Made by a program: the position numbers and the translations under genes | In this document: positions 15,980 to 24,300 of the stretch, in pieces | Layout: every line of letters starts with the position of its first letter | Numbering within the stretch: the stretch's first letter is position 1 | Notes under the pieces: generated by a model | The model's input: the letters and a program-made list of their open reading frames with translations, nothing else | The model's database searches: none | Told to the model about the DNA's origin: nothing | Source: Psammoneis japonica | Lineage: Eukaryota | Length of the DNA stretch: 40,393 bases | Direction: 5' to 3' | NCBI GenBank assembly: GCA_008632985.1 | Contig: QPGO01000241.1 | Location: 62,001-102,393 of the forward strand

Positions 15980-17260
15980 ATGTCTGCATCCAGCAGCTCT
16001 GCCACTAGAAAAGAAGAACAAGAAGAAATCGAAACGGCAGCTCAGCACCAGCAATGGCTGCAACAACTGAACCCACTGCTGAGCTGGCATGCCCATCAAC
16101 GATTGCAGCATCAACTGAAAATGCACCCAACAATTGCCATGGAAGCTGTCATGGCCCAGATTGTTGCTGAAGCAGAAGCAAAGACAAAGGAGGAAGCAAC
16201 AACTGAAACAGAAGCTGCTGCCAAAAAAAGAGCACATTGTTTCCTCCTGCGCAAAGGCCGAAGTGCCGACAACTTCTCAACTGATTGAGCAAGACTGGAA
16301 GAAGAAGTGCTTTAAGCTTGCCAAGTTCAAGCAAGTCAATGGTCATTGCAACATGCCCATTGATTTGATGTCTCTTTGCAGCCAATTGGGTGCAACAGCA
16401 GCACATGGAGCACACGAGATTTTCATTGGTTTTCTCGAGGGCCGACACGGTCATGAGAGGCAGCACCATGAACAAAGACAAGATAAAGTTGAAAATGGAA
16501 ATGAGCTTTGTGTTTGAAAGGCAATTGACAAATGAAGAATTCAAATGGAAAGAAAACTTCAAATTGCTTTGGTGGTGTTAAGACAAATGTGGACACTGCA
16601 ATGTTCTCGTGAATGACAACCTCATGGAAGAGGAAGAGTTCAAGGGTTTGGGTGCTTGGGTCAGCAGAGCATGCTTCATGGCTCAAAAGGCTGCTGCAAC
16701 ACCCAATCCAACAATGACTCAGGAATGCGTGCAGAGGCTCATTGATCTGGGGCTGGAGTTGGCACCCAAGCAGGAGAGAAGACAAAAGTCCGACACCGCA
16801 GTTCACGGTGACACTGTGGAATGGATTCAGGCCAACAAAAAGAATGCCGGTGCAAGGTGGGAGAAGCATTTTCAAGAAATTAAACAGTGCAAGGAAGAGA
16901 ATGATCACACCAAGGCACCCAACAAGCATCCTTTGCACACTCTTGGGTTGAGGTTGAGATGCAGTGCAAGGAGTGCACCAGGTGGCAACACTGCGAAGCG
17001 CATCAAAACTCGATGCAAACAAGATGCAGAGACCAGCTGTCATTGGATTGGTTTGGGATAAAAAAGAGACTGACATTTGAGAAAAATCTCAACCAATGGG
17101 TCAAGTGCCACCTGGACAACAATGGAGATGACCCACCTTGCAGACATCCTTCCGGCAGATGGGTCTCCCTCATGAGAGAAAAACATGCTGCAATGAAGCA
17201 ACAAACAGGTTTCTTCCTCCAATGAAGAGGATGAAGAATCCAAGGAGGAAGAGAAAAAAA
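15980..17260 (+). pseudogene. Degenerate helicase-associated (HA) domain repeat protein
   Basis: Repeats W.K.F.KL..FKQVNGHCNMP, WKENFKLL, LGAWVSR, ECVQRLIDLGLE and WEKHFQEIKQCKEENDHTKAP, spread over several frames with stops. Confidence 0.75.
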
Positions 17261-17699
17261 GAGAAGCAACTTTGCATCAGAATGGCTTTCATGCACAGGG
17301 GGGTCAACATCTGCACTCTTTGGCTCTGCATTGCAGTGCACAACCCTTTTGAGCTCGGGTCCTCATGCCAAGTCTGTTGGTTGATGGGTGAGATGGGGGA
17401 TTGTTGGTGCACTGCTGTGACATGTTGGGTCACATGTTGTCCCTCTGCCAACCAAAATGGGCTCAGTGCTGTGCAGTTTCACTGCCACACAACAAATGCC
17501 TCACTCACTTTGGCTGCTTGCCTTGTTCCAAAACTCTTCCTTCAGCAAGTCAGTCCCGCTGTGACTGAAAAAGTTGTGTTGCCCATGGAGCATGTTTTGT
17601 TGCCACTGATGCTTTGAGAAGGAAGCTGGGATGCAATGGTGGCAATTTGCCACACATCAACACATCATTGTGTTCTTGTTTGTTGACACCCTCTGTCTT

Positions 17700-19210
17700 G
17701 TGCTTTTTGCTGTCATGAATGAAAGAGATGGTGTTTGGTTGATGGCTGAGGGTGCCAAGTTCAGCATCAGATTTCTTCTCAACCCCTTGAGTGCTTTGTT
17801 TGGTGATTGTTGCCACCACAGGTTGCATCAAGAGAATTGCAGTTCTTATCAGCATGTGCCATCTCAGACAAAGAGTGAGTCATTGTTGTTTTCTCTCTTG
17901 TTTTCTTAAATGTCAAACCATTTTTGCAGCACTCATCTTTTAATTGCAATGTGTTTGTTGCATGGAAGTGTCAGACAAGCATGTCACACCTCCATCCAGG
18001 ATGGACTTGGGAAGAAGATGAAAATGGGGGCAACTTCTGCTTTGCTCGTGCCCAACCATTTGGCTGCAAGGAAGAGTGCAAATGAGAGAACTCATGAAGG
18101 ACCCAAAGAGTTTCCAATTGAAAAGGCAGCTGCAAGTGAAACCCACAAAGACAAAGCCATTCAAGATGCAGTGGGTTCTTCTTCCATGTGGTTCAAGACA
18201 AGTCATGATGAATTGCCCTTAGAAAAGGCAGCTGCAAGCAAGACAGTCAAAAACAAAGCAGAGCATGAGGTTAAAAATTCCTCCACTGTGTTGTCTAAGA
18301 TGAGCCATGAACTTTTACAGCTGTTGGAACTCTTTGAGGACAAGTTGGTTGCTGAATCAAGGATGATTCTCAATCAACATCAAGGTGATCTAGACAGCAC
18401 AGCAGAGGCTGTGTGCAAAGGGTCTCTCCCCACAGTGGGAATCACCCTCAACCCATGAACAACTCTCAGAAAAGTGTTTTCATGAGGGTCCTTTTGTCAT
18501 TGTCATTAAGAATTAATGATCACATGTGCTTTCCTGCCAAACATGAGAATGACAGCAGAACATGATGCCAAACTGCTTGTTGATGGATCCAGTGACTTTG
18601 GGAGTGGAGCACACCACAGTTTCATGGTCTTGGGTGAGGAGGAAGTCAAGGAAACTGTGGATTGCCCCCATGAATGTTGCACTGACAGTGATTGTGGCAA
18701 TGACAAGATGTGTGCAGCAAATGGATGTGTCTGTTGCCATGAATGCTGTGGCAACAGTGACTGTGGAAGCAATGAGTTTTGCTCAGACAGCAATGAGTGT
18801 TTGGCAAATGTGAGTGCCCCAATGGCAACAATGACTGCACTGGAAGTGATGTTTGCATTGATTGCAAATGCACTCCAGTCTGTGTGATGAGCAATGATTG
18901 CCCTCCAGATCACAAATGTCAACAAGAACCTGGTGGGTGGTTTGCACCTTTCAGTGCTGCAGCAATGATGATTGTGGGAGTGATGAGATTTGCTCAAGCA
19001 ATGCTTGTGCCTGTCGCCATGAATGCTGCAGCAATGCTGACTGTTCCAGTGATGAGATGTGCTCAAACAATGTTTGTGCCTGCTGTCATGAATGTTGTTG
19101 TGCCAACAATGATTGCCCCCTGGTGGACAATGAGGAGTGTGAAATGACCAAAATGCAGAAAATGAAGAGATGCAGTTGAGCAACAATTGAGTTGCATGAA
19201 CACCTCACAT
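17700..19210 (+). pseudogene. Degenerate, internally deleted paralog of the Cys-rich membrane-protein gene at 35820-40118
   Basis: GPKEFPIE vs GPNEFPME. SKMSHELLQLLELFEDK is identical. KLLVDGSSDF vs KLLVDGSGDF. HECC..SDC repeats. The 3' flank AGATGCAGTTGAGC is shared (~19168 and ~40221). Confidence 0.88.
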
Positions 19211-19889
19211 GTTTGTTTTTAAACCCCAATCCCCACCTGCACTGAGTCCCCCATGTCCACATGCCAGGCACACCCTGCCTGACCACCCCACAAACAGCTC
19301 GCAACTGACTGACACAGAATCTCTCTTCTGCTTGTGCTTTTTGTAGCTGTTTCTCTGCATTTGAGTTTCAATGATTGTCCTCATTGATGAGGATTTTTTC
19401 TCATGCATCCCATTTAAATTGCATTCAGAATCTTCATTGTCGGGGACCATTTGAAGACTTGTCTCTCCAAACCCTGTCGTGTCATCTCAAACCACAAAAA
19501 GACACTGGCGCCAGCCATGGAGAGCTCTGGCTCATCATCAGCAAGCTTGGATTTGCCCCTCCCTGGTTTTGCCCAAAAGAAATGGTTGCTGACCTTTGTT
19601 TCTTGTCTTGTTCAGACAGCAACATTGCATGGCATGGCTGTCATTTCCAACTGTGTTTGGGGTGCTTCGTTGCTTGGTGCTGCCTCATTGCTTGGCATTC
19701 CTCCCAGCTCCAATGCTGCTTCACCAGCTCCACAAGATGTTGGCCATGCCATTTTGTCAATCAAGTGACAATCTGCATCAGTTGCTCTGGAGCTCTCTTG
19801 ACAAGCTCCTTGTGTGGTCCCCAAAGCTCTGCATGAATGGTGTCACAATTGGTCTGGGAAGTGATCCCTCTGAATCAAGGTTGACACAA

Positions 19890-22700: not shown

Positions 22701-23861
22701 AAAGCTGATGGAATTAAATCCCGATCACTCTGCCAGCATGCAAAACTTGAAACAGTCTCATCTGCCATGGGAGTGTCAACTCATTGGTCAATCCAAGCAA
22801 TGTAAAACCTGTGGGTGGAGGCAGCACTCTGACACTGTCATGCAATCACACAACCAAACCACTTTTACAAAACTGGAAGCTTCTTCTCCGTTGCAGCAAA
22901 GACAGAATGCAACCATTCATTCACCTCCATGTCCACAGACAGCCACACTCAAAATCACCATGTTGGACTCAGCTTCCTCCACGGGTGCAAAAAACCCCTT
23001 CACCACCTTGGCCGGAATCTCATCTTACCACACATTCAGCATCTTCTTAAAATCCATGGGGTCCATGTGGACCCTAAAGAAAGGAATGTGCCCAAGAATG
23101 GGCTCACAAACCATGACATCACAGTCATTGGTCCACACCCAAAAAACTTGGGCACACTGCCCTTTACAAACACAGAGACCAAAGGATTGCTTGGGAAGCA
23201 CAGATTGAAGAAATGCACATCTGTCACCAACAATGTGCTGTGGCAGATCTTGCAAATGAAGTTCTCCACACAGTGCAAAGGCATTTCTGCACCAAACTCT
23301 TGATGAAGGCAGATCTTGGAATCTGCCAAAAACAGGCTGTGGCAACTGCACCCAAAACAAACAAGACATGCTTCCTCTTCCCATTGACTGCCACTGTGCT
23401 CCAGAGAGGGAAACAGTGATGGCATTGTTCATTGCAAAGGATCAAAGCAGTCTGGGTTGTGCTTGTTGGTGTGAATCAGAAGAGGAGTGTTTTCACTGGT
23501 GATTTTCAAAGTGAGCAGCGGTGAAAATGCAACCAGCAGGAAACAAGTCCCTTGAGTGCTGCACCATTGGATGGGACTTGTCTCAGTGAGGAAATGCTGA
23601 CTTGCTGTCAGGAACAAAATTGCAATTGCAAGACTTGGCACAATCCAACAAGGCTTCGTCCAACACCCAACGACATGACTTGGCAACAACTGGAGGTGTC
23701 TTCAGTTCCAAGCGTGACAACAAGATCTGCAATCTTTTGAAATTCCATGCACTTGGCAAAAGAGCAGTCATTGTCAATGTGCAAGAACTCACATTGGAGT
23801 GACTGGATTCTGTGTCAAACAAAGAGCAAAGATCAGTGCATCAATGCATTGTGTCAAAGGG

Positions 23862-23918
23862 CATGTCATCATGTGACATGAGCCAATGCAATGTGATGTC
23901 ATGTGACATCACATGATG
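23862..23918. repeat. Degenerate pentanucleotide microsatellite
   Basis: ATGCA ATGTG ATGTC ATGTG ACATC ACATG from 23886, with a similar tract at 23862-23881. Confidence 0.6.
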
Positions 23919-23934
23919 AAAAACAAAAGAATGA

Positions 23935-24300
23935 ATGACACCAGATCCCAATCCCGGTGCAGCTGCTGGAGCTGTTATTCGGATGCCAGCTTTTGTCACA
24001 GGTGCGAAGAGCATGATGTTCCTCAAGGTTGCAAGACAAGCGGCGCAGTGCTGCAAAACTGTTGGCCGAGATTTGTCGGCAGTCAACATGCATTGGAATC
24101 CCGTCCTCAAGAACTTCCAGGAAGCTTGGAAGGCACTCAAGGGCAGGAAGAGTGAGGATGATCCAGAAGTGCCGAGGATCACCAAGTCACTTCCGATTGT
24201 GAAGTGGACCGAGGCCTTTCGTGATCATCTACAATGTGTGATCGGGACTGGGACTGTTCCACTCTCATGCGTCACCCGAGAAACGGTTGCAGTTGACATG
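23935..24300 (+). mobile_element. Ty1/copia (CoDi-like) gag fragment
   Basis: KNFQEAWKALKGRKSEDDPEVPRITKSLPIVKWTEAFRDHLQCVIG...PLSCVTR resembles the diatom copia gag motif ...KWTEAF...VIG.R.IPL.YV.R, as recalled. Confidence 0.7.

Follow-up and report, generated by a model that had tools for sequence, protein, structure and literature searches.

Context-dependent loss of TpA from two transposon-derived blocks in a 40-kb stretch of the Psammoneis japonica genome

How can a stretch of chromosome lose nearly all of one dinucleotide while its base composition stays the same, and why do the few remaining copies share a sequence context? These questions are raised by a 40,393-nt stretch of the Psammoneis japonica genome (GenBank assembly GCA_008632985.1, contig QPGO01000241.1, positions 62,001 to 102,393 of the forward strand), hereafter referred to as the window, which contains two blocks from which TpA has almost disappeared. 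An initial annotation of this DNA had claimed that the surviving TpA sites are mostly YTAR, that RTAY is essentially gone, and that a graded tetranucleotide preference of this kind suggests an enzyme rather than neutral GC drift. We find that the two blocks are remnants of transposons, that TpA was lost from them by mutation to TpG or CpA on both strands, and that the loss depended strongly on the bases flanking each TpA.

TpA loss and the contexts of surviving sites

The TpA count per 500 bp is 12–48 in most of the window and falls to 0–6 in two stretches (all positions are those of the whole window), which we refer to as blocks A and B:

16007–24229, no strand assigned: block A, 8.2 kb, poor in TpA and CpG and rich in CA/TG, delimited by the TAs at 16006 and 24230
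27545–34992, no strand assigned: block B, 7.4 kb, poor in TpA and CpG and rich in CA/TG, delimited by the TAs at 27544 and 34993

Every 500-bp bin of the two blocks has a ratio of observed to expected TpA (TA O/E) of 0.00–0.17. With 24,722 bp of the window containing 1093 TpA serving as the flank baseline, the compositions compare as follows:

Block A: TA O/E 0.06, CG O/E 0.17, CA/TG O/E 1.81, G+C 0.47
Block B: TA O/E 0.07, CG O/E 0.36, CA/TG O/E 1.68, G+C 0.50
Flank: TA O/E 0.63, CG O/E 1.03, CA/TG O/E 1.20, G+C 0.47

Approximately 94% of the TpA has thus been erased from the blocks. The four pyrimidine-purine steps together sum to 0.239 and 0.237 in the blocks versus 0.251 in the flank and are nearly conserved; within this sum the steps TA and CG are lost and CA/TG alone is gained. 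Because G+C stays constant while TA and CG fall and CA/TG rises, GC drift does not account for the loss. The edges of the blocks are sharp, the final ~850 bp of block B being devoid of any TA and TA density being normal from 34993 onward. Among sequencing runs, the stretch was matched in one run (X1), with no RNA run listed with it. Contigs from this run span the blocks with at least 99% identity and ~60-fold depth, and the blocks are therefore no assembly artefact. Block A is single-copy in these contigs (depth ~63–72) except at 18156–19483, and block B, counting sequence of 90% likeness or more, has 2–5 times the single-copy depth.

In total, 67 TpA are still present, 35 in block A and 32 in block B. 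Grouped by tetranucleotide context, with reverse complements combined, their counts are:

Context: block A, block B, flank, blocks together
TTAA: 14, 5, 32, 19
CTAA+TTAG: 7, 11, 76, 18
CTAG: 1, 2, 47, 3
GTAA+TTAC: 7, 3, 121, 10
ATAA+TTAT: 4, 5, 164, 9
ATAG+CTAT: 1, 2, 131, 3
CTAC+GTAG: 1, 2, 157, 3
GTAC: 0, 1, 112, 1
ATAC+GTAT: 0, 1, 170, 1
ATAT: 0, 0, 83, 0

These counts bear out the initial annotation: 40 of the 67 survivors (60%) are YTAR versus 155 of 1093 TpA (14%) in the flank (Fisher odds ratio [OR] 9.0, p = 2.2e-16), RTAY is nearly gone (2 of 67 survivors versus 365 of 1093 flank TpA, or 33%), and all the individual sites it had listed are TpA in the tetramer named, its coordinates marking the base before the T. 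It had also reasoned that equal depletion of the NTAN classes would speak against a context preference; counted inside and outside the blocks, equal depletion was rejected against every baseline. Uniform depletion is rejected relative to the class distribution in the flank (G = 117.7, 9 degrees of freedom [df], p = 4e-21) and relative to 80 intact copia relatives comprising 461,780 bp (G = 96.4, p = 8e-17), and relative to the blocks' own NT and AN dinucleotide frequencies TTAA is observed 14 times in block A with 3.6 expected and CTAA/TTAG 11 times in block B with 4.7 expected.

Relative to flank density, survival is 0.94 for TTAA, 0.37 for CTAA/TTAG, 0.13 for GTAA/TTAC, 0.10 for CTAG, 0.09 for ATAA/TTAT, and at most 0.04 for all other NTAN classes. 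Measured against the copia relatives, survival of TTAA is 0.31 in block B and 0.79 in block A, and overall ATAT, GTAC, and ATAC survive at 0–0.02 versus about 0.3–1.0 for TTAA. Because CTAG survives only at 0.10–0.16, T at position -1 protects far more than C, and YTAR is an approximate label that understates this difference. In the strand-symmetrised survivor count, T occupies position -1 in 75 of 134 cases versus a frequency of 0.20 in the flank and position -2 in 69 of 134 versus 0.26, so that the bias reaches -2. Among half-sites, TT is enriched 4.1-fold in survivors, and AG, CG, and GG are present at only 0–0.2-fold. The enrichment of TT half-sites together with the excess of T at -2 identifies the survivors as TAs within T-run/A-run surroundings. 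Sites with no T-type flank survive at 0.025, those with one at 0.15–0.16, and those with two at 0.56–0.94.

A four-parameter additive half-site model, in which each flank contributes its own share of the loss rate, describes these data with a deviance of 1.6–2.4 on 6 df, compared with 96–118 on 9 df for uniform loss. The fitted -ln survival per flank is 2.4–2.5 for A, 2.0–2.1 for G, 1.1 for C, and 0–0.24 for T.

Transposon remnants and the direction, strand, and place of the changes

Reading frames within the blocks, and one counterpart outside block A, reveal what kind of DNA was affected:

28185–32480, + strand: remnant of a Ty1/copia polyprotein gene (block B), one frame with 11 stops (10 TGA, 1 TAG) in 1432 codons
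20960–22705, + strand: remnant of a MULE (Mutator-like) transposase (block A), one frame with 13 stops in 582 codons
16119–17058, + strand: remnant of a helicase-associated (HA) domain, PF03457 (block A), E 9.4e-07 at 16582–17058 and E 0.0093 at 16119–16514
18087–19071, + strand: hypermutated partial copy of the neighbouring cysteine-rich repeat gene (block A), found by tblastn of flank open reading frames (ORFs), E down to 1.7e-45
35772–37918, + strand: unmutated counterpart of that copy, used as reference, with TA O/E 0.46–0.65 and, at 35001–36000, CG O/E 1.13–1.14

In tblastn searches, intact polyproteins of 1437–1516 aa from marine metagenomes align with the copia frame as one segment with 52–56% identity and no frameshift, and phmmer gives E values down to 3.5e-138 against PF07727-carrying proteins. 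A Pfam search with the mutated frame returned no reverse transcriptase match. The residue content of the frame departs from that of its homologues, with Tyr at 0.07% versus 3.64%, Cys at 3.98% versus 1.50%, His at 4.54% versus 2.56%, and Arg at 2.93% versus 6.05%. The 80 intact copia relatives, all of which come from environmental assemblies, have a median TA O/E of 0.67 and a minimum of 0.45; several of them are CpG-poor (CG O/E down to 0.05) and still have a TA O/E of at least 0.45. No hypermutated relative was found among the 80 metagenome loci kept, and the peptide patterns used to collect them contain Arg and may miss edited copies.

Two local features of block B were also observed. A perfect 42-bp tandem duplication at 30767–30850 adds 14 in-frame residues to the reverse-transcriptase part of the copia frame and is probably later than most of the editing, because its two copies are 100% identical. 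The region 32500–34140, in the 3' part of the block, has a TA O/E of 0.11–0.17 versus 0.00–0.10 over the polyprotein and more mixed contexts of its surviving TpA, and looks like a less far edited or a separate piece of the block.

The MULE frame contains 0 Tyr, 42 Cys, and 29 His in its 582 codons. Word-seeded protein searches with block A gave no match, and a full phmmer scan alone succeeded: against 1.84 billion representatives it returned 26 matches at E ≤ 1e-3 (best 3.4e-12), and all ten of the matches tested carry at least two of the domains PF10551 (MULE), PF04434 (SWIM), and PF21056. The MULE and SWIM domains are thus matched through homologues, in a single frame. Pfam searches with block A frames gave only weak matches, to the HA domain and to PF21056 (21053–21358); read through with X at stops, the HA frame matches with E 3.3e-05. 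HA domains are abundant in diatoms. The gene fragment at 18087–19071, identified with flank ORFs 35772–36596 and 36470–37918 as queries, shares 72% DNA identity with the unmutated copy and 91% when the two are compared as purines and pyrimidines. A Ty1/copia retrotransposon would be expected to encode an RVT_2 reverse transcriptase within its polyprotein and to be flanked by long terminal repeats (LTRs), and a MULE to pair its DDE and SWIM domains with terminal inverted repeats. Neither LTRs of block B nor terminal inverted repeats of block A were found by repeat search, blastn, purine/pyrimidine-coded blastn (the E-values of which are invalid for a two-letter alphabet), or local alignment, in which scores of 17–29 compare with shuffle maxima of 25–30.

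To establish the direction of the changes, the copia frame was compared with 60 intact homologues at 848 conserved columns. Only 1 of 38 conserved Tyr is kept, the others now being Cys (TGY, 21), His (CAY, 15), and Arg (CGT, 1), and 18 of 62 conserved Arg are kept, with 37 now being TGN or CAN; conserved Phe (37 of 39) and Trp (22 of 23) are retained. When differences with several one-step explanations are assigned with priority to the TA and CG classes, 59 of the 196 one-step amino acid differences in the copia frame are TA to TG/CA and 73 are CG to TG/CA, and another 50 differences require at least two steps. The same direction emerges from the 570-column alignment of the block A gene fragment with its flank copy: 15 flank TA correspond to CA (6), TG (5), TT (3), and AA (1) and none to TA, and 32 flank CG correspond to TG (19), CA (7), CG (1), and others (5), with TG unchanged at 56 of 70 and CA at 24 of 38 positions. 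The loss of TpA is therefore mutational, and its direction is from TA to TG or CA. The finding that only 1 of the 38 Tyr codons changed to CG fits single hits that each destroy their own target. Of the 12 TpA that the copia frame retains, 7–8 belong to codons whose residue agrees with the consensus, so these are survivors rather than newly made sites.

Both strands were hit equally. TG and CA are balanced on the + strand (917/932 in block A, 805/762 in block B), and the numbers of Tyr changed to Cys (21) and to His (15) do not differ significantly (p = 0.41). Because a DNA transposon as well as a retrotransposon is affected and the strands are hit equally, editing of retroelement RNA is excluded. 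The changes occurred in place and repeatedly. Between repeat units of block A, 10 of 75 differences are double changes between TG and CA versus 14 of 759 in repeats of the flank (OR 9.5, p = 4.5e-6), and run X1 differs from the window by a TG/CA exchange at 20240/20241 and by exchanges between TA and TG/CA at 16123, 19345, 20807, 27848, and 28947. These sites were seen among 40 of the 162 differences between run X1 and the window, and the X1 contigs of block B, given their depth, may include paralogues. Neither the 4.3 kb of copia nor the 1.7 kb of MULE contains a frameshift, the frames being interrupted by point changes alone, from which it follows that editing was fast relative to ordinary decay.

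Run X1 may represent another allele or another strain. Its flank contig differs from the window by ~0.1% (3 differences in 3317 bp, besides an insertion of 20 bp at 25609) and its block A contigs by up to 0.5% (13 in 2434 bp), and the 162 differences are dominated by transitions (A>G 43, T>C 33, C>T 29, G>A 26).

CpG decay and features of the flanks

Loss of CpG is co-extensive with loss of TpA at a resolution of 500 bp. The local CpG deficit in the repeats (O/E 0.17 and 0.36) is accompanied by a gain in TG/CA, and CpG is normal in the flank (1.03). At equal TpA loss, CpG is kept 2–3 times more in block B than in block A, and at 27501–28000 and 34001–34500, where TpA is gone, CpG is only weakly depleted (O/E 0.60–0.65). 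From these sequence patterns the CpG decay is most simply read as a separate process, the deamination of 5-methylcytosine (5mC) in silenced transposon chromatin, with the methylation itself being putative. The surviving CpG likewise departs from randomness in its contexts (G = 35.0, p = 6e-5), with CCGG, CCGA/TCGG, CCGC, and GCGC over-represented and ACGA/TCGT and GCGA/TCGC under-represented.

The flanks include a complete kinesin motor domain at 75–1442 in an uninterrupted 455-codon ORF (PF00225, E 1.5e-99). This gene marks the window as eukaryotic, and its uninterrupted ORF indicates that introns are absent from a long part of at least this one gene. On the other side of the blocks, long tandem arrays of 69-bp units and of ~150–160-bp units occupy 37200–40100, where GC skew reaches +0.33; they lie in the cysteine-rich ORFs 36575–37921 and 37863–40118, neither of which has a Pfam match. 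In the left flank a motif of 40–50 nt occurs four times (2078–2126, 3459–3509, 4230–4267, and 5478–5518) in direct and inverted orientation with 87–92% identity and may be a small repeat or miniature element. The left flank also contains assembly gaps of 1 N at 14337 and 12 N at 14378–14389.

Explanations for the loss and comparison with known systems

The view of the initial annotation that the graded context preference reflects a directed mutator rather than GC drift agrees with the constant G+C, the combined loss of TA and CG, the mutational nature of the loss, and the fit of the flank model; that the mutator is an enzyme we infer. We consider it probable that an in situ, strand-symmetric mutator converting TpA to TpG or CpA was aimed at transposon chromatin, and that the blocks are transposon remnants edited in the chromosome. 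The agent is most likely an enzyme that the chromatin state of transposons recruits, and the favoured candidate is an adenine deaminase acting on DNA, of the kind proposed for Bigelowiella natans. Under this proposal, block A (a class II MULE plus gene fragments) and block B (a class I Ty1/copia element) would both have been edited where they sit, with each TpA becoming TpG or CpA, depending on which strand underwent the A-to-G change, and with the changes confined to this DNA. Hits would occur one at a time, the first abolishing the TpA, hence the rarity of double changes from TA to CG; the strands would be hit equally and the process would be near saturation, with ~94% of TpA gone. The rate would be highest with a 5' purine and a 3' pyrimidine (ATAT, GTAC, ATAC); a flanking C, or its 3' equivalent G, would roughly halve it, and a flanking T, or its 3' equivalent A, would lower it at least 10-fold. 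The slow rate at T-type flanks would explain why TTAA and TA in T-run/A-run surroundings remain, and the surviving YTAR sites would be a negative image of the mutator's preference. Decay of CpG to TpG or CpA would proceed alongside, and the two together would push every pyrimidine-purine step to CA/TG at constant GC. As a more far-reaching and tentative possibility, to which we give somewhat less than even chances, the locus may reflect a two-armed defence in which a chromatin-targeted TpA editor of duplex DNA, with a flank code in which R-TA-Y is edited fastest and T-TA-A is nearly immune, acts beside cytosine methylation, perhaps in a second eukaryotic lineage besides the chlorarachniophyte in which TpA hypermutation first came to light.

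Several points weigh against this proposal. No enzyme was found for the mutator, and its support comes from sequence comparison rather than from de novo mutations. The sample of 67 survivors is small, and 4–5 of the 12 TpA of the copia frame mismatch the consensus residue and may be newly made. Survival of TTAA varies with the baseline, from 0.31 in block B (versus relatives) to 0.8–1.3 in block A. Element edges are undefined, because neither LTRs nor terminal inverted repeats were found. The 196 one-step copia differences include 40 transversions and 23 other transitions (plus 1 ambiguous), and some ordinary divergence is thus mixed into the frame. TpA and CpG decay extend over the same stretches, so that one shared cause is conceivable. 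The remaining points concern the strands. The additive fit suggests the reading that each flank governs the adenine of one strand, which the data do not support; a product model, with the duplex treated as a single unit, fits nearly as well (deviance 3.1–10.1) and is not rejected. Sorted by the 5' base, Tyr codons gave Cys/His outcomes of 3/3 after T, 6/4 after C, 10/10 after G, and 6/2 after A, and the 3 Cys and 3 His after T contrast with the ~5–10% minor outcome that strand-specific versions predict (for either version p = 0.002–0.016 with pooled rates and 0.14 with block B rates). Tetramer footprints depend on the baseline; they lean to an effect of the 3' neighbour for TTAC and TTAG, and TTAT shows no such leaning. 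The fits do not separate the additive from the product model, and the flank rule holds whichever way the strands are read.

Among other explanations, a lesion in thymine is unlikely, yet it deserves serious attention. In this scenario a TET/JBP-type thymine dioxygenase would mark the T of TpA in silenced repeats with 5-hydroxymethyluracil (5hmU) and further oxidised forms, and mispairing or faulty repair would then give T>C, turning TA into CA on one strand and into TG on the other, with the flank rule being that enzyme's preference. Oxidised thymines are mutagenic, and with a strand-symmetric signal A>G is indistinguishable from T>C of the complementary strand. Dinoflagellate 5hmU is described as preferring T in TA and TC and as playing a part in the silencing of transposable elements, and its overlap with 5mC on repeats would match the shared extent of the TpA and CpG decay (PMC11572971). 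On the other hand, T>C changes from 5hmU at such rates are not reported in the 5hmU literature consulted, and the blocks show no shortage of TpC (TC O/E 1.04–1.10), the context that ranks second in dinoflagellates. That one agent caused both decays, either a deaminase with two targets (the A of TpA and the C of CpG) or a repair defect that is specific to heterochromatin and affects all pyrimidine-purine steps, would account for the common edges of TpA and CpG depletion at 500-bp resolution, and ADAT2 enzymes are cited as deaminating both A and C in DNA (bioRxiv 10.64898/2026.01.13.699255). We regard this as very unlikely: copia relatives elsewhere lose CpG without losing TpA (CG O/E to 0.05 at a TA O/E of at least 0.45), block B retains 2–3 times the CpG of block A at equal TpA loss, CpG persists at O/E 0.60–0.65 in the bins 27501–28000 and 34001–34500 despite the absence of TpA there, and in B. 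natans 230 of 231 hypermutations are given as A>G or T>C (bioRxiv 10.64898/2026.01.13.699255).

The sharp block edges would also be expected if the blocks were inserts that had already been edited before integration, on retroelement RNA or cDNA, by enzymes such as the ADAR and APOBEC proteins of animals, and ADAR favours U 5' of the edited A (see also bioRxiv 10.64898/2026.01.13.699255). This explanation is scarcely credible here given that a MULE DNA transposon is edited likewise, that both strands are equally affected (Cys 21 and His 15; the TG and CA counts) where editing of genomic RNA would give only A>G of the sense strand, that the repeat units of block A, and the window and run X1, diverged by TG/CA exchanges once in place, and that block B reaches 2.5 kb past the polyprotein. 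To a native or selected TpA-poor composition (resulting from avoidance of nuclease, restriction, or insertion targets or from codon usage), or to drift such as GC-biased gene conversion, we assign next to no probability. TpA is indeed mildly under-represented throughout (O/E 0.63 in the flank, 0.67 in the relatives), but the elements are dead, with 11 and 13 in-frame stops, conserved Tyr and Arg are destroyed, none of the 80 relatives has a TA O/E below 0.45, GC is unchanged, and the unmutated paralogue 17 kb away retains TA and CG.

ADAR, APOBEC3, and TadA-derived base editors have nearest-neighbour preferences and leave dinucleotide footprints, and they act on RNA or single-stranded DNA in a strand-biased manner; ADAR and the tRNA A34 deaminases act on A after U. 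The 3' ranking observed here (T and C over G, and far over A, if read on the edited strand) differs from that of ADAR, and ADAR-type editing at the RNA stage was rejected, as the changes are not limited to A>G of the sense strand in a retroelement. Fungal repeat-induced point mutation (RIP) changes C to T at CpA, producing an excess of TpA and a lower GC, and acts on duplicated sequence. The process described here is its mirror image, with TpA depleted approximately tenfold, CpA/TpG enriched, and GC unchanged, and membership in the RIP family was rejected on the basis of this opposite direction, i.e., TpA is lost and not gained. As to the dependence of RIP on duplication, block B has a depth of 2–5 times single copy and block A is single-copy except for the gene fragment. 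What the two share is that dense transitions favouring particular dinucleotides disable transposons where they lie and leave frames intact and rich in stops. RIP is a genome defence (treated, for example, in PMC2621366 and PMC7296669). The CpG O/E of 0.17–0.36, the gain in TG/CA, and the value of 1.03 in neighbouring genes resemble the 5mC-driven CpG decay of transposons described in diatoms and fungi (PMC12344493), which explains the CpG half only, CpG-poor relatives retaining their TpA. Dinoflagellate 5hmU, placed by TET/JBP enzymes, is similar in its preference for TA (and TC), in its presence on repeats with 5mC, and in transposon silencing; as presented in that account (PMC11572971) it is a mark and is not reported as a mutator, and TpC is untouched here.

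The closest likeness is found in the chlorarachniophyte B. natans, where Mettrop et al. report A>G or T>C changes at TpA for 230 of the 231 de novo mutations that arose in two integrated viral regions, with a rate in mutation-accumulation lines ~1000 times the background (bioRxiv 10.64898/2026.01.13.699255). The same preprint describes 124 clusters in the B. natans genome that are TpA-poor and rich in CpA and TpG, an enrichment of reverse-transcriptase and DDE domains among TpA-depleted predicted coding sequences, and an adenine deaminase that is proposed and not shown; its main text contains 0 occurrences of "context," "flanking," "trinucleotide," "TTAA," and "CpG." As far as that source describes its system, the two have in common that TpA becomes TpG or CpA, that the change is regional, and that foreign or mobile DNA is targeted (here copia and MULE), and both its compositional definition and its signature of A>G and T>C at TpA apply to our blocks. 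Unlike that signature, CpG transitions are also present here; the targets are copia and MULE elements, and the loss is near saturation (O/E 0.06 versus a Rho of 0.45 in their nucleocytoplasmic large DNA virus [NCLDV] region). In a full-text literature search, this preprint was the one relevant report, and no further description of transposons that lose TpA locally was found. The flank rule is new unless Table S2 of the preprint already contains it.

TpA hypermutation of foreign DNA has so far been described in this one 2026 preprint, with neither an enzyme nor a rule beyond the dinucleotide. To this the present locus adds saturation on ordinary transposons of both classes, CpG decay alongside, equality of the strands, and a measurable flank code. 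Transposons killed in this way are likely to be under-annotated, because they lose their Tyr codons and escape Pfam, and purine/pyrimidine coding, under which the edited gene fragment and its unmutated copy are 91% rather than 72% identical, offers a practical detector of edited copies. With the flank code, candidates for the enzyme become open to direct test, and, if the proposed mechanism is true, the code would be a handle for finding a natural A:T-to-G:C editor of double-stranded DNA.

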